In this document: positions 1,626-61,248 of the stretch, one piece after another | Numbering within the stretch: position 1 is the stretch's first letter | How the letters are laid out: each line of letters starts with the position of its first letter | DNA from: Candidatus Beckwithbacteria bacterium GW2011_GWC1_49_16 | GTDB taxonomy: Bacteria; Patescibacteriota; Microgenomatia; UBA1400; CG1-02-47-37 | Assembly (NCBI GenBank): GCA_001029675.1 | Contig: CP011210.1 | Location: 948,891 to 1,012,890 of the forward strand | DNA: 64,000 nucleotides | Direction: 5' to 3' | Made by a program: the position numbers and the translations under genes | Notes under the pieces: generated by a model | What the model was told of the DNA's origin: nothing | What the model saw: the letters and a program-made list of their open reading frames with translations, nothing else | The model's database searches: none

Positions 1626-2183
1626 ATGACCGCTGCCCGGAAGCTGACTGAGATTAACTTACTCCCCAAAGAGCGCTGGGAGACAGGAGTTTTAGGCAAA
1701 CTACTTAAATGGGCCTTGAATATCGGCCGCTACGTGGTGGTGTTTACGGAACTGGTTGTCATCGGCGCTTTCTTGTACCGGTTTGGGCTGGACCGACAGT
1801 TAACTGATCTTAAAGAGGAAATTGGCCAAAAACAGGCGTTGGTAGAAAGCTTTGGCGACTTTGAGGCTAAGTTTCGGGATTTGCAAGAAAAGTTAAAGAT
1901 AGTCAAAGAGATCGAAGGAGGGCAAGTTAAAGCAGACCAGGTGCTTGACGGGGTGAGCCAGATTACCCCCTTGGATACGGTTTATGACTCAATCTTGATT
2001 GACGAGGAGGGAGTAACCTTGGAAGGCCAGACTTTATCGGAGGTGGGGTTGGCGACACTACTTGCCAAAGCTCAAGGCAGCCAGCTATTTGAAGGCGTGG
2101 CACTAGAGAGTGTCAGTTCGGCGACAGACAACCAAGGGGCAATTGAGTTTAGATTGAAACTTAATTATGAAACTAACAACTAG
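1626..2183 (+). CDS. pilN: Type IV pilus assembly protein PilN-like
   Basis: N-terminal INLLPKE motif followed by a single TM helix and a coiled-coil region, the typical PilN architecture. Confidence 0.65.
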   Translation: MTAARKLTEINLLPKERWETGVLGKLLKWALNIGRYVVVFTELVVIGAFLYRFGLDRQLTDLKEEIGQKQALVESFGDFEAKFRDLQEKLKIVKEIEGGQVKADQVLDGVSQITPLDTVYDSILIDEEGVTLEGQTLSEVGLATLLAKAQGSQLFEGVALESVSSATDNQGAIEFRLKLNYETNN

Positions 2184-2796
2184 AGTCAACCGCGGCGGCT
2201 ACTCGGCTTACTGGCGCCGCTTAAGAACTTTATCCCAGGCGCCGTCGGCCAAGGTGTCTGGTTTAGTCAGTCTGACGATTTTTACGGTGGCGTTTTTTGG
2301 CTTGTTTGCCATTTTACCCACCTTCCGCACCATTGCCGAACTGACCCGGGAGATCGACGATGCCAAGGCAGTCAACAGCAGTTTAGCCAAAAAAATTAAG
2401 GCGCTGGAAAACGCCGAAGAAGTCTACTCCCAAGCCTTGCCGCGGCTAACGCTGATTGACGCGGTGGTGCCCGGCGGGCCGGAGTTTGACCGCTTGGCTT
2501 GGCAGATTCAATGGTTGGGGGCGGACAGCGGAGTGAACATTACCAGCGGCAGCTTCGGCGGTTTTCCTTTGCTTTCGACCAAAGAAAGCAGCGAGCTTAG
2601 CCAAATCGAGATGGAACTGACGGTGCAGGGCGACTACGGGGCGATTAAAAACTTTTTGGCGGATTTGACCAAGATCGACCGGCTGGTGGCAATAAATGAA
2701 GTTAATATTACCAGTAAGGGCAGCCAAGGAGTTCAGGTAGTAACGGCCAACATTCAGGCTTTGGCGTATTTTTTGCCGGGAGGAGAAAATGATTAG
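2167..2796 (+). CDS. pilO: Type IV pilus assembly protein PilO-like
   Basis: Immediately follows pilN with an ATGA overlap. Has an N-terminal TM segment, a coiled coil and a C-terminal globular domain; it occupies the PilO position. Confidence 0.55.
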   Translation: MKLTTRVNRGGYSAYWRRLRTLSQAPSAKVSGLVSLTIFTVAFFGLFAILPTFRTIAELTREIDDAKAVNSSLAKKIKALENAEEVYSQALPRLTLIDAVVPGGPEFDRLAWQIQWLGADSGVNITSGSFGGFPLLSTKESSELSQIEMELTVQGDYGAIKNFLADLTKIDRLVAINEVNITSKGSQGVQVVTANIQALAYFLPGGEND

Positions 2797-3130
2797 CGCT
2801 CTCTACGAAAAAAAGCTCAAGCGCGACATCTTTAGGCTGTCGCTGATGACCTTGATCACGGTGGTAATTTGGATCGGGGTAGCCACCTACAGAGCTTTTA
2901 CTAAAAGCCAAGTTGGCGGCAAGATAAAAAGCCAGATTATACCCTTGACGCCTACTCTTGATCTTGACACAATGGAACTTACAGATCAGAGGCTCAAAGT
3001 TGAACCGGTTAACTGGGACAGTCTGCAACCGGTATTTGAGGTGGTGCCGGAAACGGCTGAGCCGGAAGCCTCGCTAAGCGAGGAAGCCTCGCCGAGCGGG
3101 GAAGCCACCGCCAGCGGCTCTCAACTATGA
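2789..3130 (+). CDS. Small membrane-anchored protein, Ser/Glu/Ala-rich C-terminus (possible PilP-position protein)
   Basis: One N-terminal TM helix. Overlaps the pilO stop and the next gene start, i.e. operon-coupled. Confidence 0.35.
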   Translation: MISALYEKKLKRDIFRLSLMTLITVVIWIGVATYRAFTKSQVGGKIKSQIIPLTPTLDLDTMELTDQRLKVEPVNWDSLQPVFEVVPETAEPEASLSEEASPSGEATASGSQL

Positions 3131-4449
3131 AAAAATTTGGTTTAAGCAAAATTCACTTTCCTACTGCCCTAGGACTATTAATTTTATTGGTCGCCATTGG
3201 CGTGGGGGTGATGTTGGTAAGGAATCGCACCGGGGTGGACACGGAAGCGGAAGGGTCGCTGACACCCAGACAAGTGAGGATCACCAATGTGGCTGATACC
3301 AGTTTTAGCGTATCCTGGATTACCGATCAGGTGGCAAGCGGCCAGATCCGCTATGGCACCGAAGCCAATTCTTTGACTAAAACCGCGGCCGACGAAAGAG
3401 ACCAGCTATCGGGAGACACGGGCAGTTACGAGGTCCACCAAGTAACCTTGAAAAATCTGACGGCAACAACTGCCTATTACTTCAAGTTGGAGTCTGGCGG
3501 AAAACAGTTTGACAACAACGGCAAACCGTTTGAAGTGGCTACCGGGCCGACCCTGGGTGACCCGCCGGCGGCAGACCCGATTTACGGCACGGTTTTAACC
3601 TCGTCGGGGACGGCGGCAGAAGGAGTTTTGGTTTACATTAATGTCGCCAACGCCGGGCCGCTGTCGGCTTTGGCCAAGGCCAACGGCAACTGGGCTTTGA
3701 ATTTATCGACCGCCAGGACGGCAGATTTAGGCAGTTACTTGGCTTACGACACCCAAGCGACGATCGTCAATTTGTTGGCTCAGGGAGGAAAACTAGGGAC
3801 GGCGACGGCGGTGACCACCGCGGCCAACGACAGCCCGGTGCCGGACATTACTCTCGGCCAGTCTTATGACTTTAGGGCTGACGCTGCCAAAACCCAAGAC
3901 CAAACCGCCGAGCCGTTAACCGGCTTTGAACTGTCGCCGATTGCCACTGGCTCGGCCGCGGCGACTGCCTCGGGTGAAGTAACTTTAGAGAATCCCAGTT
4001 TTGACGGCGAAGTCTTAAACGCCACCCAGCCGGCGTTTATCGGCACCGGGCCGCCGGGAACGGTGTTGACGCTCCTGGTGGAGTCGGAAAATACCTATAC
4101 CGGATCGGCGACTGTCGATGCTAGCGGCGAGTGGGAATTTAGCCCCCCGGCGGGGCTGACCCCGGGCGGGCACACGGTGACGATTTCCTATATCGACGAT
4201 AATGGCGACGAGCAGACGCTCACCCGTAACTTTGTCATCGCCGCCGCCGGCGACAGCGACGAGCCGGCAATCACCGCTACCCCTTCGGGGCAAACGGCGT
4301 CGCCGTCACCCGCGGCCAGAACCGGACTGCCGGCAACGGACTCGGGAGTGCCGGAGCCGGGAACAGGAGAGATAACTTTATTAATGCTGATTATGGGTTT
4401 AGGCTTGCTGGCCGGAGGAGCGGTAGTCAAAAGGATAAATTCGCTGTAA
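3127..4449 (+). CDS. Cell-surface protein with an N-terminal signal-anchor, an FN3-like (purple-acid-phosphatase N-terminal type) domain and a C-terminal hydrophobic anchor
   Basis: PRQVRITNVADTSFSVSWITDQVASGQIRYG is an FN3-like motif. The C-terminus LPATDSGVPEPGTGEITLLMLIMGLGLLAGGAVVKRINSL has an LPxT(D/G)-like motif, a TM helix and a basic tail. Confidence 0.5.
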   Translation: MKKFGLSKIHFPTALGLLILLVAIGVGVMLVRNRTGVDTEAEGSLTPRQVRITNVADTSFSVSWITDQVASGQIRYGTEANSLTKTAADERDQLSGDTGSYEVHQVTLKNLTATTAYYFKLESGGKQFDNNGKPFEVATGPTLGDPPAADPIYGTVLTSSGTAAEGVLVYINVANAGPLSALAKANGNWALNLSTARTADLGSYLAYDTQATIVNLLAQGGKLGTATAVTTAANDSPVPDITLGQSYDFRADAAKTQDQTAEPLTGFELSPIATGSAAATASGEVTLENPSFDGEVLNATQPAFIGTGPPGTVLTLLVESENTYTGSATVDASGEWEFSPPAGLTPGGHTVTISYIDDNGDEQTLTRNFVIAAAGDSDEPAITATPSGQTASPSPAARTGLPATDSGVPEPGTGEITLLMLIMGLGLLAGGAVVKRINSL

Positions 4450-4458
4450 TATGAAAAT

Positions 4459-5910
4459 ATGGATGACAGCCTGCTGACGCCCTCAACACCCCCCGCCACT
4501 CCACCGACTCCGGAAGACGAGCAGAAAAAAATTGACGAGCTGGCCCAAAAACTCCCCAGCGACCTGGAAAAACCTCTGCCACCGCCCAAACCACCGGGTC
4601 CGCCGCCGCCGCCGCCCTTCACTCCACCAGTTGCTGGGCCCCCGCCGCCGCCCGACGATAAACCCCTCTCCGGCGACGCCAACGTCCCGCCGGAAGAACC
4701 GGAGATAAAAAGTCCGGGTAAATTTAACCAGGTCGGCAAAGCAGTCAAAAAACACGGCGTTAAAATCGCCGGCGGAGCTTTGGTGGTGACGCTTTTAATC
4801 GGCGGCGTCATCGTCGGGCAAAATTTGGTCCAGCAGAGACAGGTGGTGGAACAGCAGGCAAAATTAGGATGTGATTTCACTAATAACTGTTCAGGTTGTG
4901 AGGGTTGGGCGCCTGGAGACGGCGAATGTTGCCCTGTAGGACCGCCTGATGCTTGTGATGATCCTGGATCGTTAATATGTATTCCTGACCCATATGTTTC
5001 AGAGTGCGTGGAATATCCCTATGCAGATAAATGTGAGGGGGTAAAGGGCTTTACCGGTTATTATTGGAGGCCTGTTGAGTTTGAGATTGACCCCGAAACC
5101 GATCCTCGGTGTAAAGAAAGTCCGCCGCCGGGAGGTGAAGGAAAACACACTGAATGTCGTAATAATGCCTGCGAGATCGTTGACGGTTCGGGACCAATCG
5201 AGTGTACTAGCAACGCCGATTGTGCTCACCCCTCGCCTTCTCCCTCACCGTCGGCGAGTCCGTCTCCTTCTCCGTCATCTTCACCTTCGCCGCAACCGGA
5301 ATTGGCCTGTGTGGATTTGAGCACCTCACCGGAAGAAAACGCCATTAAGCTCGGGGACTCGGTGACTTTGACCTGTCAAGCCAGCTTCTCCTCGGTCAGC
5401 CCGGTAGCCCAATTCCGCTACCAGGTCGGGGGCGGAGCCTTTGTGGAGGATCCGACTAGCTTCCCGATTGACACCGGCACCGGCCAAGCCACTAAAAACA
5501 TCACCATCGATCAAACTGGCACCTGGTTGGCGCAGTGCCGAGTCTGTACCGATTCAACTGCCGCCAGTTGTACCGGCTGGGGCCAGGCGGATGGTATTGG
5601 CGGCCCTAGTTTGCCGCCCCCACCAGAACCGCCCGGGCCGCCCGTGCCAGAACAAGCCAGCTGCGACTTGAGTTTATCTGCCGGCAGCGTTTCCTGCGGC
5701 GGCGGGTCTTGTAGCGGAACACTGCGCTGGACCAACAATGTGGTAGTTAATATCATCCAGACCAACCGGGTAATCGCCGCCAGCCAACAACCGCCCAGTG
5801 GTTCCAAACAAATTTCCGCCAGGACGGCGGCGGATTTGGCAATCAGCTGCCAAACTACCAACGGACAAACGCTGGATACTTTAAGCCTGTCGGGGCAATT
5901 TAATCTTTAA
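4459..5910 (+). CDS. Pro-rich / Cys-rich membrane-anchored surface protein
   Basis: N-terminal poly-Pro tract (PPPKPPGPPPPPPFTPPVAGPPPPP), a TM helix, multiple CxxC-rich modules and an (SP)n linker (PSPSPSPSASPSPSPSSSPSP). Confidence 0.5.
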   Translation: MDDSLLTPSTPPATPPTPEDEQKKIDELAQKLPSDLEKPLPPPKPPGPPPPPPFTPPVAGPPPPPDDKPLSGDANVPPEEPEIKSPGKFNQVGKAVKKHGVKIAGGALVVTLLIGGVIVGQNLVQQRQVVEQQAKLGCDFTNNCSGCEGWAPGDGECCPVGPPDACDDPGSLICIPDPYVSECVEYPYADKCEGVKGFTGYYWRPVEFEIDPETDPRCKESPPPGGEGKHTECRNNACEIVDGSGPIECTSNADCAHPSPSPSPSASPSPSPSSSPSPQPELACVDLSTSPEENAIKLGDSVTLTCQASFSSVSPVAQFRYQVGGGAFVEDPTSFPIDTGTGQATKNITIDQTGTWLAQCRVCTDSTAASCTGWGQADGIGGPSLPPPPEPPGPPVPEQASCDLSLSAGSVSCGGGSCSGTLRWTNNVVVNIIQTNRVIAASQQPPSGSKQISARTAADLAISCQTTNGQTLDTLSLSGQFNL

Positions 5911-5919
5911 CTATAAACT

Positions 5920-6828
5920 ATGCCGGAACAACCAATACCAACACCAACGAGCCAACCCCCCGCCGCTAAACCTGCCTCGCCGGCAGGCGGGGCTTCGGCG
6001 GGTAAAGGGGAAAAGAAATGGCTGTTGTGGGGCCTGATTGGCTTTACGGTCATCTTACTTATCACCGCGGTGGTGTTGTTTTTACAGCTAAGAAAACCGG
6101 CGGAAGAACCGGCACCCAGAGTCAGGCCGACGCCGACTCCGGCGATACCGCCGGTTCAGGAAGTAACCGGAGCTGGCGTCTGCGAAACCACCTTCACCGT
6201 CACCGGGCCGACTTGTACCGGAGTGACGATTGATCCAACGGGTACCAGCGTTTCGGCCGGAGATGACCGGGAACTGACGGCAGAGGTAACCGGCGGGTCG
6301 GGGACGTACACCCATGAGTGGACGATTACCAGCGACGGGGCTGATGAGGGAGATTTAAGCTCAACTACCGCCAACCCGACGACCTGGACGGCGCCTGGCA
6401 GCTTAGATGAGTCTCAATCGTGGACGATTACCGATACTATTACCGATGCCGTAGGAGAAGATATTACTACCAGCTGCAGTGTAATTCTAAACTTTACCGG
6501 TTTGGTCGCCTGTTTTGATACCTGTGATACCGACCTAGACTGCGAAGAGGGCCTAAGTTGTACTGATGTGGCCGGTACTTTCCGCTGTGTCGATGCCAAT
6601 TGTCCCGAAGACGTTGATTGTAGTTGTGCCGACGCTTCGCCGTCGCCTTCACCGTCGGTGTCGCCGTCGCCAGGGGTATCTCCCTCGCCTACTCCGCCAG
6701 GCATAACCCAAGCGTCACCGTCGCCGAGAGTGGCTCAACCCGAGCTGCCCGAAGCCGGCTTCTCGGCGCCCTTGGTCATCGGCGTCGCCGGAGGAATTCT
6801 GTTGGTGATACTCGGTCTGTTGTTCTAA
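5920..6828 (+). CDS. Cys-rich surface protein with N-terminal TM anchor, (SP)n linker and C-terminal LPEAG plus hydrophobic tail
   Basis: TM at residues ~35-55; the CxDxDLDCEEGLSCTD module is paralogous to the previous gene; the C-terminus is ELPEAGFSAPLVIGVAGGILLVILGLLF. Confidence 0.5.
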   Translation: MPEQPIPTPTSQPPAAKPASPAGGASAGKGEKKWLLWGLIGFTVILLITAVVLFLQLRKPAEEPAPRVRPTPTPAIPPVQEVTGAGVCETTFTVTGPTCTGVTIDPTGTSVSAGDDRELTAEVTGGSGTYTHEWTITSDGADEGDLSSTTANPTTWTAPGSLDESQSWTITDTITDAVGEDITTSCSVILNFTGLVACFDTCDTDLDCEEGLSCTDVAGTFRCVDANCPEDVDCSCADASPSPSPSVSPSPGVSPSPTPPGITQASPSPRVAQPELPEAGFSAPLVIGVAGGILLVILGLLF

Positions 6829-6829
6829 A

Positions 6830-8068
6830 TTACTTCCAGGTCGGCAGCCAAAACCAATACTTAACCAAGTTTTTGGGGAGATGGACGGCGGTGTTAATTG
6901 GATAGAAGAAAAGAAAAAGAGCTACGACGATAGTCGTGTAGTAGATGATTAGTAGGCGACCTCGCTGGGGCGAGGTTTTTTGAAAGTCAATTAGCGCCCA
7001 GGCAATAATGATGGTAAGTAAGGATAGGGCCGGTAGGTAGTGGTGTAAGAAAAGAATTCTGGGGGAGAAAGACCAAGGCAACCAAAGAAGAAAATAACTG
7101 ACAAGAAGGTAGATCGTTGATCGTTGATGGCGGTAGAGGGCGTAGATCACGGCCACCAGTCCGCCCCAGAAAACGGCCGGGTTGCCCAGGTTATAAATGT
7201 TGGCGATGGTGTCTTTAGCATAGTCGACGTAAAACCAAACGGGACGAGCCAAAAGCGGCCACGTAAGGGCGGCGGTTTGGTAGTCGTGGGTGGCGGAAAG
7301 ACCGGTTTGGTACCAATAGATTTGCTGGTGGAGGTGGTAAAAGTCGATTAAGCTGTGGCCTTGAGCGAAAAACTGAAGGTAGGAAAGAAAGTAAATGACC
7401 ACAGGAATAATCAGTAAACTGTAAACCGTAATCAGTAACTTTTTAGGATTGGTAATTAAAACTTTTAGTTGGGGTAAAAGAAAAACGGCAAAGATGGGGT
7501 AGATGGCTAGGGCGGAGTGCTTGGTGGCAAGAGCCAAGCCGGTAAAGATGCCGGTGAGATAAAGATGTTTTAAGGTCCGACCTTTAAGAGCACGGTAAAA
7601 AAAGGTCAGCGCCAAAAGCATAAAGGTGGTGACGAAGATGTCGTTCATGGTGATTCTGGACATGGTGAGAGCGAGGCCGTCAAGCGAAAAAAAGGCGGCG
7701 GCCAAAAGCGACAGTTTAGGGTTTTTAAACAGGGCCTGGGCGAGAGTAAAAACCGCCGCCACGGCCAGGGTGCCGAAAAGGGCGCTGGGAAACCGCCAGG
7801 CAAAACTGTTATCGCCCAAAAGCTTGACCGAACCTGCCTGGATCAGTTTGGCCAGCGGCGGGTGAAGCCAATCATAAGCCGTCCCCTTTTCGGGGGGCTC
7901 GTGCCACCATTCGTAGCCGGCCGGATTATTTTCAGCGTGAGCCCGGACGGTGACGACATGATAGACTTCGTCAAAAACGTAGGCCGGCGGGATGCCAAGG
8001 CGGAAGACACGGACAACTAGGGTGAAAGTAAGTATTGCCCAAAATGCCTTGGTGTAAAATGACTTCAT
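6830..8068 (-). CDS. GT-C fold glycosyltransferase, PMT/ArnT-like (GT39/GT83 family)
   Basis: Polytopic membrane protein with a DE motif in the first periplasmic loop (YVFDEVYH). The start is probably the internal Met MKSFYTKAFW, which shares a CATG with the divergent gene at 8067. Confidence 0.6.
   Translation of the reverse strand: MKSFYTKAFWAILTFTLVVRVFRLGIPPAYVFDEVYHVVTVRAHAENNPAGYEWWHEPPEKGTAYDWLHPPLAKLIQAGSVKLLGDNSFAWRFPSALFGTLAVAAVFTLAQALFKNPKLSLLAAAFFSLDGLALTMSRITMNDIFVTTFMLLALTFFYRALKGRTLKHLYLTGIFTGLALATKHSALAIYPIFAVFLLPQLKVLITNPKKLLITVYSLLIIPVVIYFLSYLQFFAQGHSLIDFYHLHQQIYWYQTGLSATHDYQTAALTWPLLARPVWFYVDYAKDTIANIYNLGNPAVFWGGLVAVIYALYRHQRSTIYLLVSYFLLWLPWSFSPRILFLHHYLPALSLLTIIIAWALIDFQKTSPQRGRLLIIYYTTIVVALFLFFYPINTAVHLPKNLVKYWFWLPTWK
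7572..7584. repeat. Solo 13-mer AAGGTCCGACCTT inside the PMT-like glycosyltransferase coding sequence
   Basis: Exact 13/13 match to the repeat terminus, embedded as ...LKGRTLK... in the minus-strand protein. Confidence 0.7.
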
Positions 8069-9545
8069 GAGATTTATTGTAGCACTCACGTTTTGGGTAG
8101 TGGTATTTTGGTTAACTTTTAGCCAGACTATGTTCAGGCAAAATGACGGTGTTTTTGGCGCCTGCTCAAACTGCTGGGGCGATTGGTCGGCCCACACCAG
8201 CTACATGGCCTCGTTTGCCTTTGGGCGAAACTTTCCGCCCAGCTTACCGATTTTGGCCGGCGAAAAATTCAGCTATCCCTTTTTAGTGGATTTGATCACG
8301 GCCGGAGTGGTCAAGCTGGGAGTCGACTGGGTGAAAGCAATGGTGGCGGTCAGCTTAGTCACCGCGGTGGGGTTGGCGGGGGCGGTAATAGCTTTTGGCT
8401 GGAAGCTAACCGGTAAGTTTAAAATCGGGGTGGTAACGGCGCTGGTGTTTTTTTTAAACGGCGGCGTGGGCGAGTGGCAAAATCTTATTTCCTCCCAGGT
8501 CGTCCCCCAGCGGGGGCTGGCTCTGGGGATGACCATGGCCATCTGTGTCTACTGGTTGCTGTGGCAAAAGAAACTTTTTTGGGCGGGGGTGGTGGCAGGT
8601 TTGTTGCCGCTGGTTCACGCCCATTCGTTTATGGCGGTAGTCTTGGTGGCGGGGGGGCTAGGGGGCTGGCGAGTGATCAGAGCAAAAAATAAAACCAAGG
8701 AAATTTCAGCCTGGTTGGCTTTTGCTGTCCCGGCGTTGATTCTGGGCGGGGCGCAGGTGAGGTATTTTTACGCCGGGGTCTTGGGCCAAAACTTTGTCAG
8801 GTGGCAACCAGGCTGGCTGGCTGGCGGCGGCCTTTGGGGCTGGGCCTGGTTTTGGCTCAAAAACGCGGGGCTGGTCTTGGTTTTGGCAACAGCAGGCTGG
8901 TGGCTGGCTCCAAAAAATCTCCAGCGTTTTAGCCTGGTATTCTGGGGGTTGTTTTTTCTGGCTAACTTAGTCGTCTTTCAACCTTGGGATTGGGACAACA
9001 CTAAAATGTTGACCCACTGGCATTTAATGGCTTCGGTGCTGGCGGCCGGGGTAATCGTCAGGTTTTTTGACCATAAACGCTGGTTGGTAAAAATCTTAGG
9101 AGTGGGGGTGTTGGTTGCCAGTGTTTGGTTTGGATCGGTTAAGGTCGTGGCCATTGCCAAAGGGGAAAATCAGTATCGCTTTTGGGATAAAAACCAAATC
9201 GAAGCCGCGGCTTGGGTCAAAGACAATACCCCTCCCCGAGCAGTGTTTTTGACCGCTTCAAACCATGATCACTGGCTGCTTCCACTCACCGGCAGAAAAA
9301 TCGTCATCGGTTACCCGGGCTGGCTGTGGACTTACGGGCTTAACTACAGTCAGCGGGAAAAAGAAGTCGGAGAAATTTTTGGCGGCGGACAGACGGCAGA
9401 CAGCCTAATGGACAAATACCGGGTCGACTACGTCGTTTTAGGGCCGGAAGAAAAAAGACTCGACTCTATCAACCAGGAATATTTCCAAACCAAGTTGACT
9501 GAAGTTTACCAGCTTGAGGACTACCAAGTCTTTGCGGTCAACTAA
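8067..9545 (+). CDS. Polytopic integral membrane protein with C-terminal soluble domain (putative GT-C-type glycosyltransferase)
   Basis: About 11 predicted TM helices followed by a ~130-aa soluble C-terminal domain; sits in the glycosyltransferase neighbourhood. Confidence 0.4.
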   Translation: MRFIVALTFWVVVFWLTFSQTMFRQNDGVFGACSNCWGDWSAHTSYMASFAFGRNFPPSLPILAGEKFSYPFLVDLITAGVVKLGVDWVKAMVAVSLVTAVGLAGAVIAFGWKLTGKFKIGVVTALVFFLNGGVGEWQNLISSQVVPQRGLALGMTMAICVYWLLWQKKLFWAGVVAGLLPLVHAHSFMAVVLVAGGLGGWRVIRAKNKTKEISAWLAFAVPALILGGAQVRYFYAGVLGQNFVRWQPGWLAGGGLWGWAWFWLKNAGLVLVLATAGWWLAPKNLQRFSLVFWGLFFLANLVVFQPWDWDNTKMLTHWHLMASVLAAGVIVRFFDHKRWLVKILGVGVLVASVWFGSVKVVAIAKGENQYRFWDKNQIEAAAWVKDNTPPRAVFLTASNHDHWLLPLTGRKIVIGYPGWLWTYGLNYSQREKEVGEIFGGGQTADSLMDKYRVDYVVLGPEEKRLDSINQEYFQTKLTEVYQLEDYQVFAVN

Positions 9546-10755
9546 GGCTTTTGCGCACAAAAACGGCCCTCAAGCTTAAGATTAACAGGGTAATAAGAGT
9601 CAAATTTCTTAAAAGCATCAGGTAGTAAATCGGCAAGCTTCTGCCGGCAGAGTAAAAATCTTCAAGAAAAGGAGTATAGAGGACGGGGTAAACGTTTTGG
9701 TTTAACAGCAGGGCGACAAGGGTAAGGCCGAAAAGAACAAAGTAGTCGTTTTTGGCTTGCGAGCCGGTGAGGCGGAAAAAGGGAAAAAGGGAAACAAACC
9801 ACCAGAGGTACTGGGCGTGGAGGTTTTTGGAAAAAAGCAAAAACACCAGAATAAGGCAAAAAACCAGAGCGAAGCTTAATTTTTGGCGCAATTTCGGCCG
9901 GCGGTAAAGGTACCAGTAAAAGAGAATAACCGGCAAAAACCAGAAGCGGTTAAACCAGGCAAGGCCGACGGCGTCGACTAAGGGAGAATCGACTCCCCAG
10001 ACGCCGTAGCCGCCAAGAAGAGGCAGGGGCCTGCCAGCGGTCAGAAGCGACCAGCCGGTAAGAAGGCTGCCGGGGACGGATTCGATGCTGACGTATTTTA
10101 GGGCGTGGAAACTTAGTCCGGCGCCGATGTCATCGAGTCTGCCGCCGAGATAAAGGTAAGGAATCAGGCTTAAAAGAATCGCTTGAAGATAGTAAAGTAA
10201 GAAAGCGATCGCGGCTTTGGGGTTCTTTTTGGAATAGGTAAGAAGCATTAAATAGGGCAAGATGATGACGGGGTAGACTTTGACCGCGGTAGCCAGCCCC
10301 AAGACAAAGGCAGACAGCGGCGGCTTTTTTTGGACAAACAAAACCAGGCTTGCCGCCACCAACAAAGCGGCCAGGGCTTCAAAGCGAAACAGAATAATCG
10401 GGCCCAAGAAAACTAGGGCAAACGGAAGGGTGAGTCTTTGGATCAAGGGGCGGCGGCGGGTTAAATAAAGCTGGAGGCCTAAAATGGCTAGAATGATAAT
10501 AAAAAAAGCGTTCAAGTAATTCACATAGAGAAAAGGAGCCAGACCGGCAATAAAAGCGGGTAAGAGCAAAAACAGGCTGGTGGCCGGCAGAATTTCTATG
10601 CCGGGAGCGTCAAAAAAGGTGCGGTATTTAAAAAAGTGCTCGACTCTTAAAAAATAATTCCAGACGTCGACTTCAAGATGCCCCCGCCACAGGGGAATGT
10701 GGGCTTGAAAAAAAATCACGGCTAGAGCTAAGAGAGCCAAGCTTAAATACTTCAT
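9538..10755 (-). CDS. DUF2029/GT87-like polyprenyl-phosphate-sugar-dependent glycosyltransferase
   Basis: Polytopic membrane protein with a ...ATAVKVYPVIILPYL... motif typical of the DUF2029/GT87 family. The start is taken at MKYLSLALLALAV (ATG 10753-10755), which overlaps the stop of the LCP gene. Confidence 0.45.
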   Translation of the reverse strand: MKYLSLALLALAVIFFQAHIPLWRGHLEVDVWNYFLRVEHFFKYRTFFDAPGIEILPATSLFLLLPAFIAGLAPFLYVNYLNAFFIIILAILGLQLYLTRRRPLIQRLTLPFALVFLGPIILFRFEALAALLVAASLVLFVQKKPPLSAFVLGLATAVKVYPVIILPYLMLLTYSKKNPKAAIAFLLYYLQAILLSLIPYLYLGGRLDDIGAGLSFHALKYVSIESVPGSLLTGWSLLTAGRPLPLLGGYGVWGVDSPLVDAVGLAWFNRFWFLPVILFYWYLYRRPKLRQKLSFALVFCLILVFLLFSKNLHAQYLWWFVSLFPFFRLTGSQAKNDYFVLFGLTLVALLLNQNVYPVLYTPFLEDFYSAGRSLPIYYLMLLRNLTLITLLILSLRAVFVRKSLS

Positions 10756-11819
10756 GGCGTCTGATTTTGGTAGAAGAGCTCGTCGATGTAGTCGTGAACA
10801 AGAGTCCAATCGTTGTCGACGGGGATTAAGACCCAAGCACCATAAAGGCTGTCGGGCGGGTGGTAAAGTAGCGGCGGGATGTCTTCGACTTCACTCCCCT
10901 GGTTTAAAATTCCGGTTCTTAAGCTGTCCTGGTCAACCCGGAGCGCCAGCTTGGCCAAATCGGACCAGCTTTTTTGAGGAATGTCGGTTTTGACCGAGGC
11001 AGAAAATATTTGGTAGAGACCTTTAACCTTTTTTAGGCTCAAGAATACCTTCGGGCTCAAGAGTTTTTTCTTGAAGCTCAAGATGACCCGCTGTTGGCGC
11101 TGGGAGCGGGCGTAGTCGGTGCCTTCTTCGCCGGCGGCGTTACGGGACCTAATGTACTTTAAAGCCGTGACGCCGTCCATGACTTGGCTGCCGGCTTTAA
11201 ATTCGACGGTTTGGTAGCGGTCGGATTCGGGCTCGGCGTTTTCTTTGCCAGGGATGGGGTATTTGGCATCGACGAAGCCGTGGGGAACGTCGACGCTGAT
11301 GCCGCCGACGATGTCGATGGCTTTTTCAAAACCGGAAAAATCGAGTAAGGCGGCGTAGTGGACTGGCTGGTTGACGATTTCGGCAACGGCGGCTCGGGAC
11401 AAAGTCAAACCCCCGCCGTCCAATTTGCCCTCGCCGTAAAAGTAGGCGGTGTTTAGTTTGGCTTGGAGCGACTCGACCCAAATGTCCCGGGGCAGCGAGA
11501 CCAAAACGGCGTCGCCGCTTAAAAGTTCAACGGAGATAAGCATGATGCTATCGGTTAACTCTCCCCCGGGGTGGTCGCCGCCGGCGACGCCTAAGAGCAA
11601 AAAGTTCGTCCGGCCCTTGAAACTTTCAAGGCTGGTGACGCTGGGGTTCAAAAAGGAGACGGCGGCGGCCGGGCCGCGGGCAAGATTTTTTAAGCCTCTC
11701 CCCAGGGCCGGGGAAAGGAGGATGACTAAGCTCAAAAAGACAGCGACGGCAAGCAAATAAGTTAGGGGGCGGACCAACCACAGGTGTTTATAAAGGCGGC
11801 GTCTCAATTTGGGGAACAT
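10752..11819 (-). CDS. LCP family (LytR-CpsA-Psr) cell-wall glycopolymer phosphotransferase
   Basis: N-terminal TM helix, then FLLLGVAGGDHPGGELTDSIMLISV...VSLPRDIWV...LNTAYFYG, the LCP core motifs. Confidence 0.75.
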   Translation of the reverse strand: MFPKLRRRLYKHLWLVRPLTYLLAVAVFLSLVILLSPALGRGLKNLARGPAAAVSFLNPSVTSLESFKGRTNFLLLGVAGGDHPGGELTDSIMLISVELLSGDAVLVSLPRDIWVESLQAKLNTAYFYGEGKLDGGGLTLSRAAVAEIVNQPVHYAALLDFSGFEKAIDIVGGISVDVPHGFVDAKYPIPGKENAEPESDRYQTVEFKAGSQVMDGVTALKYIRSRNAAGEEGTDYARSQRQQRVILSFKKKLLSPKVFLSLKKVKGLYQIFSASVKTDIPQKSWSDLAKLALRVDQDSLRTGILNQGSEVEDIPPLLYHPPDSLYGAWVLIPVDNDWTLVHDYIDELFYQNQTP

Positions 11820-11833
11820 GTTATGATTCTAAC

Positions 11834-13636
11834 ATGCCCAAATCCCTGACTAAAGCTTTAAACCCGCCTCAAAAACTGGCGGTGACTTTTGGCGAAGGAC
11901 CTTTGCTCATTTTGGCGGGAGCGGGTTCGGGAAAAACCCGGGCCTTGACTTATCGGGTAGCCTATTTGATCAAGGAGCGCCAAGTGGATCCGAAAAGGAT
12001 TTTACTGGTGACGTTTACCAACAAGGCGGCGGGTGAGATGAGACAACGGCTAGAAAAGTTAGTAGGACGAGACCACAGCGCCGGTCTTTTTGCCGGGACG
12101 TTTCATGCCTTTTGCGTCCGGCTTTTAAGAATTGATGGGGGCAAGATCGGCATCGAGCCAAACTTTGTGATTTACGACGAGGCTGACAGCCTGGCGGTGA
12201 TCAAAAAGGCGATCAAAAACTTAAAGCTTAATCCCAAAACCTACAAACCCCGAGGGGTGAAAAGCCTTATTTCCCAGGCTAAAAACGAGCTGATTTCTGC
12301 CGAGGCTTATCCCCAGTACGCCCGGGGCGAGTGGCAAAAGGGGGTGGCGGAGATTTTTTTGGAGTACCAACGCTTACTTAACCGCTTCCGGGCGCTTGAT
12401 TTTGACGATCTTTTAATGAAAGCGGTTTACCTGCTTAAAAAAGACCAACCGACGCGGCAAAAATACCAAGACCGGTATCAGTGGGTACTGGTGGATGAAT
12501 ACCAAGACACCAACAAGGCCCAGTATGAACTGACTAAAATCTTGGCGGGTAAGTGGCGTAATTTGGCGGCGGTGGGAGATTTTTCCCAGTCGATTTATGC
12601 TTTCCGGGGGGCGGATTACCGCAACATCAACCAATTAAAGCAGGATTTTGCCGACTTGAGACAGATAAGTTTAGAACAAAATTATCGCTCGACCCAGACG
12701 ATTTTGGACGCGGCTACCGCGGTGATTGCCAAAAATAGCCTCCACCCGGTGTTGACCTTATGGACCAAGGCGGGTTTGGGGGCGAAGGTAAAGATTTTTG
12801 AGGCAGACAACGAAAAAGAAGAAGCAGGTTTTATCGTCGCCACGATAAAAAACGACCCAGGCAGCCATGCGGTTTTATACCGAACCAACGCCCAGTCCCG
12901 GGTAATCGAGGAGGCGCTTCTTAAAAACGGAATGGCCTACAGCTTGGTGGGCGGGGTGAGATTTTACGCGAGAAGAGAGATCAAGGACCTGACGGCCTAC
13001 CTAAGGCTAATCAACAACCCCAAGGATTTAGTCAGTTACCAACGGTTGGAAAAGTTGGGGAAAAGGAGTCTTAACCGGTTTGTTAACTGGCTCGACCAGA
13101 AAAAAAATATCGACAAGCTGCCGACCAGAAAAATTTTGGAGCAGGTGGTCAAAGTAACCGGCTATCTTGACCGGTTTGACAAAAAGAACGAGGAAGATCT
13201 AAACCGCCTGGAAAACATCGATGAATTAAACAGTGTGGCGGAAGAGTTTAAGGATTTGGGGGCCTTTTTAGAAAACGCAGCCTTGGTCGAGGCGGCCGAC
13301 CGGCCGACGCTAAAGGGTAAAGAAAACCACGAGGGAGTAACCTTGATGACCATGCACAACTCCAAGGGCCTGGAGTTTGATACGGTGTTTATGATCGGCA
13401 TGGAAGAGGGACTTTTCCCCCACTCGCGGTCTAGTTTCAACAAAGAGGATCTCGAGGAAGAACGCCGGCTCTGCTACGTGGGCATGACTCGGGCTAAGCG
13501 GCAGCTTTATTTGTCTTATGCCCGGGGCCGGTTTTATTTTGGCAGACGAAACTACAATACGGTCAGCCGGTTTTTGGCCGATATCGACGAGGGCTTGTTG
13601 GAGTTTGTTAATCAGGAATTTGATATTATTACTTAG
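11834..13636 (+). CDS. pcrA: ATP-dependent DNA helicase PcrA/UvrD (600 aa, compact)
   Basis: Walker A AGAGSGKT; motif III VGDFSQSIYAFRGAD intact; motif VI VGMTRAKRQLYLSY. Confidence 0.85.
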   Translation: MPKSLTKALNPPQKLAVTFGEGPLLILAGAGSGKTRALTYRVAYLIKERQVDPKRILLVTFTNKAAGEMRQRLEKLVGRDHSAGLFAGTFHAFCVRLLRIDGGKIGIEPNFVIYDEADSLAVIKKAIKNLKLNPKTYKPRGVKSLISQAKNELISAEAYPQYARGEWQKGVAEIFLEYQRLLNRFRALDFDDLLMKAVYLLKKDQPTRQKYQDRYQWVLVDEYQDTNKAQYELTKILAGKWRNLAAVGDFSQSIYAFRGADYRNINQLKQDFADLRQISLEQNYRSTQTILDAATAVIAKNSLHPVLTLWTKAGLGAKVKIFEADNEKEEAGFIVATIKNDPGSHAVLYRTNAQSRVIEEALLKNGMAYSLVGGVRFYARREIKDLTAYLRLINNPKDLVSYQRLEKLGKRSLNRFVNWLDQKKNIDKLPTRKILEQVVKVTGYLDRFDKKNEEDLNRLENIDELNSVAEEFKDLGAFLENAALVEAADRPTLKGKENHEGVTLMTMHNSKGLEFDTVFMIGMEEGLFPHSRSSFNKEDLEEERRLCYVGMTRAKRQLYLSYARGRFYFGRRNYNTVSRFLADIDEGLLEFVNQEFDIIT

Positions 13637-13639
13637 GCG

Positions 13640-14785
13640 ATGATTATTAGAGACATTACCGCCAGCGACAGACTCAAGTTTAATGACGCGGTCGGGCATC
13701 CGCTGCAGGCTTTTGAGTGGGGGCAGTTCAGGCAGGAAACCGGAGTTAAAGTGATCAGGAAGGCCATTTTTGAAGGCGATAAATTGATCACTCCGGTTCA
13801 GGTGACCATTCATCAGCTGCCAAAAGTAAATTGGAAAATCGGCTATTTTCCTCGAGGGCCGATGCCGGACGAGGATCAGATGAAGTTATTAACCCAGATC
13901 GGCAAACAAGAAGGACTAATGATGATTAAACTCGAGCCGAATGTGGCAGCGGTGATAAATGACGGCGGGCCAAAAGTTCAGGCCTGGGAGACGGTAAGGA
14001 CGTTTTTGCGGTCTTTCGGGGCCAGGCCGGGAAGGTCGCTTTTTACCGATTATTCGTTTCAGCTGGATTTGACCGAGAGCGAGGAGAAACTTTTAAAAAA
14101 CATGCACTCTAAAACCCGCTACAACATCAGGCTGGCAGAAAGAAAGGGGGTCAAGGTGGCGGTGGATAATTCCCCGGCCAGCTTTGAATGGTTTCTGAAA
14201 CTTCTGTTTGAGCAAACGGTGGTGCGGCAGGGGTTTTATGCCCACACGCCGGATTATTTTAAAAAGCTGTGGGGGGTGTTGGCACCGGCCGGCATTGCCC
14301 ACCTGCTTCGGGCCTATGTGGGCGATAAAACTTTAGCGGTGTTTATGGTGTTTAAGTTTAATAACTGGTTGTATTACCCCTACGGAGCGTCGACGCGGGA
14401 AGAAAAGGAGCTAATGGCGCCAAACTTGGCTATGTGGGAAGCGATTCGCTTTGGCAAAAAGGAGGGGTGTAAGAAGTTTGACCTGTGGGGAGCGCTGTCG
14501 CCCACCCATAACAAAAATGATCCCTGGTACGGCTTTCACCGGTTTAAGGAAGGCTATGGAGGCAAGCTGGTCGGCTTTATCGGCAGCTACGATTTGGTGC
14601 TTGAACCCAAGAAATATTTGGCTTACCGGGCCGGTGACAGCTTACGCTGGGCATACCTTAGGACTGCGGCGGCGGCCAAAAGGATGCCGGGACAACTAAG
14701 CGGAGTTTTCTCTGATGTGCCAGAAAAGGTAGGTGAGGTCGCCAGCGACGCGATCAAGACTTTTGAAAAAGATGACCGATCTTAG
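13640..14785 (+). CDS. FemAB-family peptidoglycan peptide-bridge aminoacyltransferase
   Basis: Length and FemX/FemA-like architecture; the ...SKTRYNIR... core motif is repeated in the adjacent paralogue. Confidence 0.65.
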   Translation: MIIRDITASDRLKFNDAVGHPLQAFEWGQFRQETGVKVIRKAIFEGDKLITPVQVTIHQLPKVNWKIGYFPRGPMPDEDQMKLLTQIGKQEGLMMIKLEPNVAAVINDGGPKVQAWETVRTFLRSFGARPGRSLFTDYSFQLDLTESEEKLLKNMHSKTRYNIRLAERKGVKVAVDNSPASFEWFLKLLFEQTVVRQGFYAHTPDYFKKLWGVLAPAGIAHLLRAYVGDKTLAVFMVFKFNNWLYYPYGASTREEKELMAPNLAMWEAIRFGKKEGCKKFDLWGALSPTHNKNDPWYGFHRFKEGYGGKLVGFIGSYDLVLEPKKYLAYRAGDSLRWAYLRTAAAAKRMPGQLSGVFSDVPEKVGEVASDAIKTFEKDDRS

Positions 14786-15644
14786 GCAAGCTCGGGCTTA
14801 TTGGCGATACATGAAAAGCTTAGGCTGGCGGGTGGTCGACGGCGCCTTTGTCAAAAAACTCCCCTTTTTAGCTTTGAGCCTGGTCAAAATCCAAAGGCCG
14901 GAGCGTCAACCTAATCTTGCCGCGCTGAAAAAATTTCGCCCCATCTACATTAGCTACGAACCAGCGGTCAACCACAAACCCCCTGCCGGTTTCCGCCCGG
15001 GGTCACCCCTTTTGCCGTCAAGAACCATTTGGCTTGATTTGAGAAAGAGCCAGAAAAAACTTTTACAAGAAATGCGCCCCAAAACCCGCTACAATATTAA
15101 AAAATTACGGATTACGGATTACGGATTACGGATTACTCAAGGCAGTCAGCTAAGCGACGATCAACTCGCTGCTTTTTACCAAATTTACCGGGAAAACGCT
15201 AAAAAGCAAAGATTTTGGGGAGCAAGCTTTACTCAACTGAAGTCGTTGGCCACCTGTTTTGGTAAAAAGGCTTATTTAATCATTGCCAGACGGATGGCGC
15301 AGGCAGGGGAAAGCCGAAGGCAGGGTTTGGCTGGCAATGATGTCATTGGCGGGCTTTTAATTCTCGTTCACGACCGCGTGGCGTATTACTCCCACAACGC
15401 GGCCACCAATGAAGGGCGCAGGCTCTTTGTTCCCACCATCTTAACTTGGGAGGCGATTAAGCTAGCCAAAAAACTTGGCTGTCATACTTTTGACTTTGAG
15501 GGTATTGACGACCCTCGCTTCCCGGTCACCCGCAAATGGACGGGGTTTTCTCGCTTCAAAAAAAGCTTTGGCGGTAAGGAGGTCAACTACCCCCAGGCTT
15601 TGGTAAAATGGCAAGTACCGTTGTATCGATACAATAGAACTTAA
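14772..15644 (+). CDS. FemAB-family aminoacyltransferase, second copy
   Basis: Paralogous to the previous gene (RPKTRYNIKK vs SKTRYNIRL; FKKSFGG vs FKEGYGG). The start is taken at the internal Met MTDLRQ to avoid a 53-nt overlap. Contains the heptanucleotide repeat listed separately. Confidence 0.6.
   Translation: MTDLRQARAYWRYMKSLGWRVVDGAFVKKLPFLALSLVKIQRPERQPNLAALKKFRPIYISYEPAVNHKPPAGFRPGSPLLPSRTIWLDLRKSQKKLLQEMRPKTRYNIKKLRITDYGLRITQGSQLSDDQLAAFYQIYRENAKKQRFWGASFTQLKSLATCFGKKAYLIIARRMAQAGESRRQGLAGNDVIGGLLILVHDRVAYYSHNAATNEGRRLFVPTILTWEAIKLAKKLGCHTFDFEGIDDPRFPVTRKWTGFSRFKKSFGGKEVNYPQALVKWQVPLYRYNRT
15104..15136 (+). repeat. Tandem heptanucleotide repeat (ATTACGG)x4.7 inside the femAB-2 coding region
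   Basis: Direct reading: attacgg attacgg attacgg attacgg attac, translated as ...LRITDYGLRITQ... Confidence 0.85.
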
Positions 15645-16102
15645 TGATTGTGGCCTTGGAAAACATCAGGAGTCTTTATAACGTCGGGGCGATTTTAAGA
15701 AGCGCCAGCTTTTTTGGAGTGAGCGAGGTATTTTTGGTGGGGGTAACGGGGTCGAGGAAAATCGGCGGCCAAAGGTGGCTTCACGAAGGGTTAGCCAAAA
15801 CCGCTTTGGGAGCAGAATGGCAGTTACAGATCAAAATCTTGAAAGACAGCCAGAAATTGATTGATCTTGCCAAGAAGAACGGTTTGAAACTGGTAGTAGT
15901 GGAGCAAACGGCGGGGGCAACTCCCCTGTCAAGCTTCCGGCCGGGCAAAAACATGGTCTTGGTCTTTGGCAACGAGGTAACTGGCGTCAGTCAAAAAGTT
16001 TTGGCGGCGGCAGACAAGGTGGTAGAAATCCCCCGACGGGGCAAAAAAACTTCTTTAAATGTCGCCGTGGCGGCCGGAATTGTTTTAAGTCGATTGGGGT
16101 AG
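15644..16102 (+). CDS. SpoU/TrmH-family RNA 2'-O-methyltransferase
   Basis: SPOUT motifs: LYNVGAILRSA...LVFGNEVTGVS...SLNVAVAAGIVL. Confidence 0.8.
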   Translation: MIVALENIRSLYNVGAILRSASFFGVSEVFLVGVTGSRKIGGQRWLHEGLAKTALGAEWQLQIKILKDSQKLIDLAKKNGLKLVVVEQTAGATPLSSFRPGKNMVLVFGNEVTGVSQKVLAAADKVVEIPRRGKKTSLNVAVAAGIVLSRLG

Positions 16103-27171: not shown

Positions 27172-27189
27172 GGCTGATACAATAAAAGC

Positions 27190-28701: not shown

Positions 28702-28703
28702 AT

Positions 28704-29114
28704 ATGAAAAAGCCACGGCAGATGAGTTTTTTCTCTAACACCGGCGCGGGTTTTGGTGAGGTAAAACTTCAGATCGATACTCTCGCGGCCGACCCGGCGG
28801 CAAAAATTGGCCTAAGGATCGCCTTTTTGGCCTTAGGGGTGGAATTTTTGGTCTTGGCTTTGTCTTGGAGCCGGCTGCCTCCCGAAGTGCCGCTGTGGTA
28901 CAGCCGGCCTTACGGGGAAAGCCAACTGACGGGGGCGTGGTGGCTATGGTTGCTTCCAGGGGTGGGTTTGTTTATAAACTTGGTGTCGATCAGATGGGCG
29001 GGGGTGGTGGTGGCAACAGAAAAACTCTTGGCCCAAATCTTGGTGTGGGTGGGGGCGATGACGGCGGTAATGGGGTTGGCGGCAGTGAGCAAAATTGTGG
29101 CCTTGATGTTATGA
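28704..29114 (+). CDS. Small 3-4 TM membrane protein (possible flippase-type partner)
   Basis: Hydrophobicity pattern only. Overlaps the next gene start with an ATGA. Confidence 0.3.
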   Translation: MKKPRQMSFFSNTGAGFGEVKLQIDTLAADPAAKIGLRIAFLALGVEFLVLALSWSRLPPEVPLWYSRPYGESQLTGAWWLWLLPGVGLFINLVSIRWAGVVVATEKLLAQILVWVGAMTAVMGLAAVSKIVALML

Positions 29115-32047: not shown

Positions 32048-32119
32048 GGCCTAGTGGCGAAGAGGTAACGCGGCTGTCTGCAAAACAGCCATACGTCGGT
32101 TCGATTCCGACCTAGGCCT
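32048..32119 (+). tRNA. tRNA-Cys (anticodon GCA)
   Basis: 7-bp acceptor stem GGCCTAG/CTAGGCC, T-arm GTCGG-TTCGATT-CCGAC, and anticodon stem GCTGT/ACAGC with loop CTGCAAA. CCA is not encoded. Confidence 0.85.
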
Positions 32120-52174: not shown

Positions 52175-52244
52175 AAGGACAGACCTTCCAGCTTCGCTGT
52201 CCCGGCTTGGCCGTTGGCCACGCCTCCTGTTAAGGTCTGGCCTT
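52175..52244. repeat. Degenerate copy of the same repeat family in the valS 5' leader
   Basis: AAGGACAGACCTTcc...cctgttAAGGTCTGGCCTT; it shares cctgttaaggtc with copies a/b and gaccttcc with copy b. Confidence 0.6.
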
Positions 52245-60511: not shown

Positions 60512-60515
60512 AGTG

Positions 60516-60984: not shown

Positions 60985-61024
60985 AACAAAATTTCTAATT
61001 TCTAATTAACCTAAGTGCTATCGG

Positions 61025-61162: not shown

Positions 61163-61199
61163 AATTTAGCCAAGTATATATTACTTTGCTTTTCCCAAC

Positions 61200-61212: not shown

Positions 61213-61248
61213 GTTGTTAATTTTCGTGTATTGTTGGTGTTGACGGGG

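Follow-up and report, generated by a model that had tools for sequence, protein, structure and literature searches.

What does a compact group of four membrane and envelope genes build at the surface of a bacterium of the Candidate Phyla Radiation (CPR)? CPR bacteria, or Patescibacteria, are abundant, mostly uncultivated and attached to other cells, and their surface chemistry is almost unknown. The genes lie at positions 6830-11819 of a 64,000-nt stretch of contig CP011210.1 from Candidatus Beckwithbacteria bacterium GW2011_GWC1_49_16; this whole stretch is referred to as the window. Four open reading frames (ORFs) fill this interval, which is the one given in an initial annotation of the sequence:

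6830-8068, minus strand: gene A, a GT-C glycosyltransferase of the PMT/GT39 type, 412 amino acids, ~10 hydrophobic segments
8067-9545, plus strand: gene B, a predicted member of a GT-C family without a name, 492 amino acids
9538-10755, minus strand: gene C, a GT87/PIG-M/ALG3-like GT-C enzyme, 405 amino acids
10752-11819, minus strand: gene D, an LCP (LytR-CpsA-Psr) phosphotransferase, 355 amino acids

We propose that the region is probably, if not securely, a compact extracytoplasmic glycosylation island made up of two sub-modules rather than one proven pathway. On the outside of the membrane, the products of A and B would draw sugars from polyprenyl-phosphate carriers, with A adding the first sugar and B extending or diversifying the glycan. 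Wall-anchored, secreted proteins, such as the pair encoded directly upstream, would be the likeliest acceptors, with the sugars attached to Ser/Thr residues of their (Ser-Pro)n linkers. D, coupled to C, would transfer a polyprenyl-pyrophosphate-linked glycan, primed by a WecA-like enzyme encoded 17 kb off, onto peptidoglycan, and C, as a GT87/PIG-M-like mannosyltransferase, may decorate either D's glycan or the protein O-glycans.

The window has ~50% G+C and almost no intergenic DNA. On one side (1626-6828), the island is bordered by a pilN-pilO operon and, after it, three genes for surface proteins, and on the other (11834-20185) by uvrD, two femAB genes, spoU and a gene for an intein-containing AddA-like helicase-nuclease.

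A PMT-type transferase and its unnamed GT-C neighbour

The product of gene A exceeds the Pfam cut-offs for PMT (PF02366; 76.1 bits, cut-off 22.7), PMT_2 (79.5 bits) and PMT_4TMC (PF16192; 75.2 bits, cut-off 32.4), and thus contains both the N-terminal PMT domain and the C-terminal module of four transmembrane (TM) helices. This agrees with its initial description as a PMT-like GT-C protein. Its first extracytoplasmic loop carries Asp33-Glu34 within FDEVYH, which aligns with VFDEIY of a Dormibacterota PMT whose gene adjoins a B homologue (30% identity to A, E = 4e-44). The Asp-Glu motif in loop 1 is important in PMT enzymes. We set the start of A to the ATG at 8068, which is backed by the N-termini of relatives; an upstream GTG at 8197 was rejected because the relatives begin at the ATG with TM1. 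By family type, A is predicted to transfer mannose from polyprenyl-phosphate-mannose to Ser/Thr residues of proteins.

The closest described counterparts are the bacterial Pmt enzymes of family GT39, such as M. tuberculosis Rv1002c and S. coelicolor Pmt, which share with A an N-terminal PMT domain, a C-terminal PMT_4TMC module and the Asp-Glu motif of loop 1. Like A, they lack MIR domains, and Pro/Ser-rich secreted proteins are at hand near A as possible acceptors. A differs in being shorter (412 amino acids) and in scoring 64.2 bits against the NCBIfam Pmt equivalog NF058602 (cut-off 800), which makes it a member of the family and not an equivalog. Whereas bacterial Pmt acts with the polyprenyl-phosphate-mannose synthase Ppm1, a Ppm1-type GT2 is absent from the window. 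Moreover, A is paired head-to-head with a second GT-C gene, B, and we know of no such pairing described for actinobacterial Pmt.

Two candidate acceptor genes directly adjoin A:

4459-6828, plus strand: two genes for membrane-anchored surface proteins with (Ser-Pro)n linkers, candidates for O-glycosylation

Such linkers are present in only four of the 55 proteins encoded in the window. The protein encoded at 5920-6828 also has an LPxTG-like motif (LPEAG) followed by a hydrophobic stretch, and an Ig-like protein encoded at 3127-4449 has another (LPATD), followed by a hydrophobic stretch and a basic end. Orthologues with Ser/Pro/Thr-rich stretches flank A in relatives. As A is of the GT39 type and these proteins with (Ser-Pro)n linkers abut it, protein O-glycosylation by A and B appears at least as likely as synthesis of a wall polymer.

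Gene B belongs to no family that we could name. No Pfam or NCBIfam family scored above threshold, and NCBIfam gave no matches at all. The sole Pfam model touching B, DUF6798, reached 20 bits (cut-off 26.9) over residues 378-414 only, and our literature search found no paper that mentions it. Within the B family, PMT_2 and Dpy19 matched one or two of 20 members, at E ~0.01 only. Searches of the PDB with B and its profile returned noise (VirB2 and triosephosphate isomerase, E > 0.01), and we rejected assignment to a known family. The AlphaFold2 model of B, however, shows a GT-C fold with high confidence (pLDDT 91, pTM 0.91), upholding the initial proposal that this large membrane protein is a GT-C. 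When the model was searched with Foldseek, STT3 chains ranked at the top (E ~1e-8), AftA had the highest TM-score (0.64) and PMTs were far lower. As modelled, B is a GT-C enzyme with an oligosaccharyltransferase/AftA-type architecture whose fold is closest to STT3/AglB and AftA.

The likeness is one of fold. STT3/AglB/PglB (GT66) and AftA (GT85) have no detectable sequence similarity to B, which is much smaller (492 amino acids), and the STT3 Pfam model did not match any of the 20 B-family members at E <= 1. Where oligosaccharyltransferases have WWDYG, the sequence in B is GWLWTYG, Thr/Ser replacing Asp, and the second DxD-type motif is absent. Across the family, the counterpart of WWDYG reads G-[YF]-[PK]-G-[WHY]-[LI]-W-[TS]-x-G, with no Asp, an equivalence judged by sequence order only. 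Lacking both WWDYG and any STT3 sequence signal, B was rejected as an oligosaccharyltransferase. Its conserved neighbour is a PMT-type gene and not a cluster of the pgl/agl or arabinan type. B is also unrelated in sequence to YfhO.

To identify conserved residues, we aligned 20 B homologues from several phyla. Asp39 and His43 are invariant within WGDWxAH, in the first outer loop after the N-terminal TM helix. Other invariant motifs are PQRG (147-150), FQPWDWDNTK (305-313), LTGR (407-410) and GYPGWLWTYG (415-424). A C-terminal alpha/beta domain spans approximately residues 365-492. In the proposed mechanism, acidic residues of the first outer loop would be used by both enzymes, Asp33-Glu34 in A and Asp39 in B.

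The deposited protein of Candidatus Beckwithbacteria bacterium GW2011_GWB1_47_15 is 100% identical to the product of B. We rejected the public start of B at Met22 (471 amino acids), as TM1 is conserved and modelled at pLDDT ~95. The conservation of TM1, the confidence of the model and the position of the promoter agree and indicate that B starts at the ATG at 8067 (492 amino acids).

The B family is large, comprising 5,529 clusters (50% identity) at E <= 1e-3 and 2,349 at E <= 1e-30. Scanning one genome per species, we found at least 581 loci with B relatives, in Beckwithbacteria, Acidobacteriota, Dormibacterota, Chloroflexi, Brocadiales, Udaeobacter and others. ORFs were called in the best 80 of these loci and searched with iterated profiles, and adjacency was counted in the 60 species-level loci that had at least 1.5 kb on both flanks. 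Of these 60, 49 (~80%), which represent at least four phyla, have a gene of the PMT or PMT_2 type immediately beside the B homologue, mostly overlapping it. The arrangement takes two forms: a true PMT (PMT plus PMT_4TMC) lies upstream of the B homologue in 21 loci, including Dormibacterota and Chloroflexi among the Pfam-scanned loci, and a PMT_2-type gene lies downstream in 29 loci, including those of Acidobacteriota and anammox Planctomycetes. Among the loci searched, an LCP gene adjoins B in CPR loci only; no LCP gene was found within 8 kb of the A/B pair in the loci of Acidobacteriota, Dormibacterota, Chloroflexi or anammox Planctomycetes.

Since the A/B pair recurs in distant phyla while its other neighbours differ, at least A and B are likely to be functionally linked, and gene neighbourhood points to the A/B half of the island as an old functional module independent of LCP. 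A bolder proposal, which we hold only tentatively, is that the B family (~5,500 clusters, at least 580 loci) is an obligate PMT partner in CPR, Dormibacterota, Chloroflexi, Acidobacteriota and anammox Planctomycetes that helps to build O-glycans on Ser/Thr/Pro-rich surface proteins and is joined to an LCP ligase in CPR. Carriers with cultured relatives presumably include Nitrolancea, Pyrinomonas and enriched Kuenenia. The surface layer of Kuenenia is heavily O-glycosylated (PMC5088730).

The LCP gene, its GT87-like neighbour and competing accounts of the island

The second half of the island is defined by two overlaps:

9538-9545: 3′-end overlap of the convergent genes B and C, 8 nt in common
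10752-10755, minus strand: ATGA, in which the stop codon of D (TGA) overlaps the start codon of C (ATG)

The initial annotation had described the GT87-like and LCP genes as convergent. This was an error: C and D are both on the minus strand and overlap by the ATGA, and the real convergent, overlapping pair consists of B and C. The ATGA overlap suggests that the LCP gene D is translationally coupled to C.

In the first outer loop of C, Asp30 is near-invariant and Glu54 and Pro57 are invariant. The window protein falls just under the GT87 cut-off (23.1 bits, cut-off 25). Its homologues at 40-63% identity carry PF09594 and PF05007, the family profile matches solved PIG-M at E = 1e-11, and the fold is of the ALG3/PIG-M/PimE class. 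These three, from families GT58, GT50 and GT87, respectively, are lipid-phospho-mannose-dependent mannosyltransferases. C differs from them in its apparent translational coupling to an LCP gene, in the restriction of its near relatives to Microgenomates-type CPR loci and in that phosphatidylinositol mannosides are not expected in its host. GT87-like relatives below 33% identity have no A, B or D neighbours and are therefore uninformative on coupling. Because GT87-like enzymes are themselves GT-C, the island encodes three GT-C enzymes and not the two first counted, although the GT-C calls for A and B hold.

Gene D is an LCP-family member, as first proposed, scoring 97.8 bits against Pfam LytR_cpsA_psr (PF03816; cut-off 24.6) and 80.1 bits against TIGR00350 (cut-off 62.3). 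It matches solved LCPs at E = 3e-12 to 1e-5, the best being those of E. faecalis and S. aureus, and its alignment to 3qfi and 6uex retains TDSIM, RD, N-AY, Y-R-R and D--R--RQQ. A hydrophobic segment at residues ~22-40, after an Arg/Lys-rich N-terminus, forms an anchor that places the catalytic domain outside the cytoplasm, as in the established LCP architecture of N-terminal anchor and extracytoplasmic domain (PMC7831098). The initial annotation was to stand or fall by searches of this kind, and profile and fold searches back its PMT, GT87-like, LCP and GT-C assignments alike.

From its family and motifs, we infer that D may ligate a polyprenyl-pyrophosphate-linked glycopolymer to peptidoglycan. 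The LCPs of Gram-positive bacteria (TagT/U/V, LcpA-C, Cps2A, mycobacterial Lcp1 and A. oris LcpA) have the single anchor, LCP domain and conserved Asp/Arg residues that are also found in D, and their systems include a WecA-like priming enzyme of the kind also present in D's genome. D differs in falling below every NCBIfam LCP equivalog cut-off and in being operonic with GT-C enzymes instead of a teichoic-acid or capsule cluster. Our search of the literature turned up no study of LCP enzymes from CPR bacteria; the one paper it matched to both Patescibacteria and the LCP family was unrelated work on Lactobacillus.

Enzymes that might supply D are encoded in a second glycan cluster of five genes (25681-31077) specifying a membrane GT2, a PMT_2/DUF6427-like GT-C, a 136-amino-acid protein without assignment, a WecA-like GT4 and a UbiA protein. 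A gene for a PEGA/SH3 protein with a Ser-Pro linker similar to those near A abuts this cluster (31080-32006). The last two genes of the cluster are:

28865-31077, plus strand: a WecA-like polyprenyl-phosphate N-acetylglucosamine (GlcNAc)-1-phosphate transferase (GT4; Pfam Glycos_transf_4) and a UbiA-family protein (Pfam UbiA)

The WecA-like protein scores 71.7 bits against TIGR02380 (wecA), below the cut-off, and the UbiA protein scores 224.7 bits against NF008977 (decaprenyl-phosphate phosphoribosyltransferase; cut-off 234). The latter score points to a CPR bacterium with a lipid-linked pentose donor. Together, the two proteins could supply the primer of the LCP substrate and a lipid-linked pentose donor. 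WecA- and UbiA-type steps both typify the assembly of arabinogalactan, whose final step is ligation by an LCP enzyme (PMC5964476). Genes for peptidoglycan-related proteins (FemAB, M23 and VanW/PG_binding) are also found in the window, and MurJ is encoded in relatives. Elsewhere in the window, a gene at 55671-58769 (minus strand) encodes a 1,032-amino-acid fusion of an NAD-dependent sugar epimerase/dehydratase and DUF4012, another candidate envelope-glycan gene.

The wall-linked secondary glycopolymer proposed in the initial annotation is therefore plausible, since LCP enzymes need a polyprenyl-pyrophosphate-linked substrate and a WecA-like GT4 and UbiA are encoded at 28.9-31.1 kb. Taken by itself, the island consists of three GT-C genes and the LCP gene only, with no priming transferase, flippase/ABC exporter or cytoplasmic glycosyltransferase, and elsewhere the A/B pair occurs without LCP. 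It is thus not a self-contained wall-glycopolymer cluster: the WecA-like gene is 17 kb from the LCP gene, and no exporter was found.

One alternative is that the four genes and the 25.7-31.1-kb cluster form a single pathway for a peptidoglycan-linked glycopolymer, following the logic of mycobacterial arabinogalactan. The WecA-like enzyme would prime lipid-pyrophosphate-GlcNAc, the UbiA-type enzyme would make a lipid-phospho-pentose, A, B and C would elongate the glycan outside the membrane and the LCP enzyme would ligate it. Every enzyme class is present in the window (WecA-like GT4, UbiA resembling decaprenyl-phosphate phosphoribosyltransferase, three to four GT-C enzymes and LCP), the LCP gene shares an operon with C, A or B, depending on the relative, and the logic itself is documented (PMC5964476, PMC7831098). 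We nevertheless consider a single pathway unlikely. Four other phyla have the A/B pair but no LCP gene within 8 kb of it, B is about as similar to oligosaccharyltransferases as to AftA, the two clusters are 14 kb apart with unrelated genes between them, and neither an exporter/flippase nor a DprE1/DprE2-type epimerase was seen in the window. A is moreover of the GT39 type, and to our knowledge GT39 enzymes are known only as protein O-mannosyltransferases.

A second alternative directs all four genes to sortase-anchored surface proteins, with the GT-C enzymes building or trimming the glycan and the LCP enzyme moving a lipid-pyrophosphate-linked glycan onto a wall-anchored protein instead of peptidoglycan. 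There is a precedent in Actinomyces oris, where LcpA acts on GspA, and this is also the only organism in which such an activity is documented (PMC6381275, PMC7831098). In Beckwithbacteria, the neighbouring proteins have LPATD- or LPEAG-like motifs, hydrophobic tails and Ser/Pro linkers, and the LCP, PMT and surface-protein genes stay together in relatives, although this adjacency is perhaps inherited synteny. We regard a protein-directed LCP as quite improbable, given that the nearest solved relatives of D are teichoic-acid and capsule ligases of Firmicutes and that no sortase gene was identified in the window.

To determine which parts of the island persist, we compared loci of CPR relatives at 36-63% identity, designated below by L numbers. 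Wherever a contig spans both flanks, Ser/Pro-rich surface-protein genes on one side and uvrD-femAB on the other enclose a variable set of genes of the A-D families, whose order, orientation and GT-C content change. D is followed by C in the window, L003, L090-94, L097 and L104, by A in L101 and L102, and by B in L096 and L103. Where D precedes C, the two are close: their ORFs as called overlap by 4 nt in L003/L004, as in the window, in L011, L090-94 and L097 D immediately precedes C and the called ORFs overlap, and in L104 it is 9 nt upstream. In L001 and L002, an IS200-type (Y1_Tnp) transposase gene (9647-10285) takes the place of C between B and the LCP gene. In L091-95, L098 and L100-102, the position of B is occupied by a PMT_2-type GT-C or a second GT87-like gene, and in L107 a PMT_2-type gene follows C. 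Judged by gene content, the island shows the pattern of a variable surface-glycan locus. As the flanks are syntenic, what the relatives prove is persistence in place and not repeated assembly.

The relatives also connect the island to GT2 plus GT-C systems of the CsbB/YfhO and GtrB/GtrC type, in which a polytopic GT-C acts outside the membrane with a lipid-phosphate-sugar as donor, the same logic as proposed here (PMC5836110). In L092-94, an extra GT2 of 241 amino acids, the size of a polyprenyl-phosphate-sugar synthase, adjoins A and is a counterpart of the small GT2 of CsbB/YfhO-type systems. Unlike those systems, the island in the window has neither a small GT2 nor a GtrA-like flippase, and clusters three different GT-C genes.

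A third alternative, likewise quite improbable in our view, is that the four envelope genes form no functional unit and were packed together by genome reduction and conserved lineage gene order: the entire pilN-to-femAB block is syntenic, including the unrelated uvrD and spoU, and C is dispensable, being replaced by the transposase gene in L001 and L002, yet the A/B pairing recurs in distant phyla amid other neighbours, the GT-C genes are reshuffled but always accompany the LCP gene between the same flanks, and D and C share the ATGA.

Several observations weigh against the two-module island that we prefer. Since synteny with the relatives extends all the way from pilN/pilO to femAB, the adjacency of the island to Ser/Pro-rich genes, and of its GT-C genes to LCP, could reflect inherited gene order and not functional coupling. 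The D-then-A and D-then-B operons hint at a tighter coupling of LCP and GT-C than two modules would imply. No polyprenyl-phosphate-mannose synthase (small GT2) is encoded within the 64-kb window. B could be a non-catalytic PMT partner, although its invariant polar residues argue otherwise. Finally, a generic scan of 6700-12000 for sigma-70 promoters (-35 plus -10) and terminators gave no enrichment, and the promoter model described below is therefore based on -10 elements alone.

Proposed compact promoters, a palindromic repeat and other features of the window

The genes of the island start in extremely small spaces:

8066-8069: CATG, in which the start codons of A (CAT, minus strand) and B (ATG, plus strand) overlap by 2 nt
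8076-8084, minus strand: extended -10 element TGcTACAAT for A, 7 nt upstream of its ATG
8055-8060, plus strand: -10-like TAAAAT for B, 6 nt upstream of its ATG and within the first codons of A
11820-11833: GTTATGATTCTAAC, the 14-bp spacer between the divergent genes D and uvrD, with two overlapping extended -10 boxes

The CATG common to the divergent genes A and B had been noted in the initial annotation and is borne out. In relatives, the A/B spacer is 0 nt (CATATG; L001, L009, L012, L013 and L014) or -38 nt (L003). The -10 element of A is encoded by the Ile4-Val5 codons of B (ATTGTA), and TACAAT is found 6-7 nt upstream of the ATG of A in the window and at all six relatives' loci (five distinct junction sequences). 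Hexamers like that of B occur 7-8 nt before its ATG in L012 (TACAAT), L014 (TAAAAT) and L013 (TAGAAT). In the D/uvrD spacer, the plus-strand box is TATGAT (11822-11827) and the minus-strand box TAGAAT (11826-11831), each 6 nt from its ATG. This spacer is kept as GYTATGATTYTANC in L003, L004, L011, L013 and L097, where protein identity is ~40-45%.

The same signature is found throughout the window: TA[ACT]AAT lies 5-8 nt before the ATG at 12 of 47 gene starts, compared to 1.6% of all ATGs (p = 1e-11), and a Shine-Dalgarno-like motif is present at only two of the 47. The simplest reading is that leaderless mRNAs arise from -10-only promoters. A/B and D/uvrD would each be transcribed from back-to-back promoters consisting of little beyond an extended -10 box 6-7 nt before the ATG. 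Because leaderless mRNAs make intergenic DNA dispensable, divergent starts with zero spacer would become possible. We found nothing useful in the literature on leaderless mRNAs in Patescibacteria. Further starts with the leaderless signature include 15644, 22466, 27190, 34554(-), 39750(-), 45660, 50692(-), 51185(-), 51217 and 60511(-), and TGn often precedes the hexamer. For some ORFs, the motif favours a start other than the one called, such as the ATG at 32006(-) over the TTG at 32024.

Gene A also contains a short palindrome:

7572-7584: AAGGTCCGACCTT, a solo copy within A, in the reading frame K-G-R-T-L

The 13-mer is where the initial annotation had placed it, inside the PMT-like gene. 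Further exact copies are present at 40176 and 61200. Allowing up to two mismatches, the palindrome AAGGTCNGACCTT has nine sites (18 strand-matches) in the window compared to 1.9 expected. Pairs of palindromes 57-66 nt apart bound a repeat of ~73-79 nt; palindrome-bounded stretches are found at 40176-40248, 40407-40485, 52175-52244 and 40986-41048, and solo copies at 7572-7584 and 61200-61212, one of which lies 81 nt upstream of the ATG of dnaA. The ~73-79-nt repeat is inserted twice in frame in the gene at 39747-41135, where it gives rise to RSDLNRNSRL...RSDL peptide repeats. The unit resembles a small mobile repeat bounded by palindromes. We rejected the palindrome as a conserved site in A, since it is absent from 167 of 168 fetched loci; the lone copy in a relative (L100) is in an A-type gene, apparently at a different position.

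Some other features of the window lie outside the island. The AddA-like protein is a UvrD helicase/PD-(D/E)XK nuclease of 1,366 amino acids (16085-20185, minus strand) split by an intein, with Intein_splicing and Hint matches at residues ~277-637; orthologues in relatives have ~1,000 amino acids. Both dnaA and dnaN are inside the window, and 60512-61292, upstream of dnaA, is presumably the replication-origin region. In bacteria, rnpA or rpmH usually lies between yidC and dnaA. An Rfam scan of the whole window gave a single match, a tRNA at 32048-32119, and none in the island.

Proposed extracytoplasmic glycosylation in a reduced genome

In a Beckwithbacteria genome of ~1 Mb, several genes thus appear to be given over to extracytoplasmic sugar transfer and to linking glycans covalently to the wall. 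The proposed leaderless promoters, which lie back to back and include a conserved bidirectional one of 14 bp, illustrate in compact form how a reduced genome can dispense with intergenic DNA, and the position of the promoter also corrects the publicly annotated start of B.

The island follows known envelope-glycosylation logic, and what stands out in it is B, with its nameless GT-C family and the conserved pairing of that family with PMT-type genes. B represents a large, nameless family with a clear GT-C fold and invariant residues like those of an active site, and its PMT-type neighbour yields a hypothesis about its role that is directly testable. As some carriers presumably have cultured relatives, this hypothesis is open to experiment.

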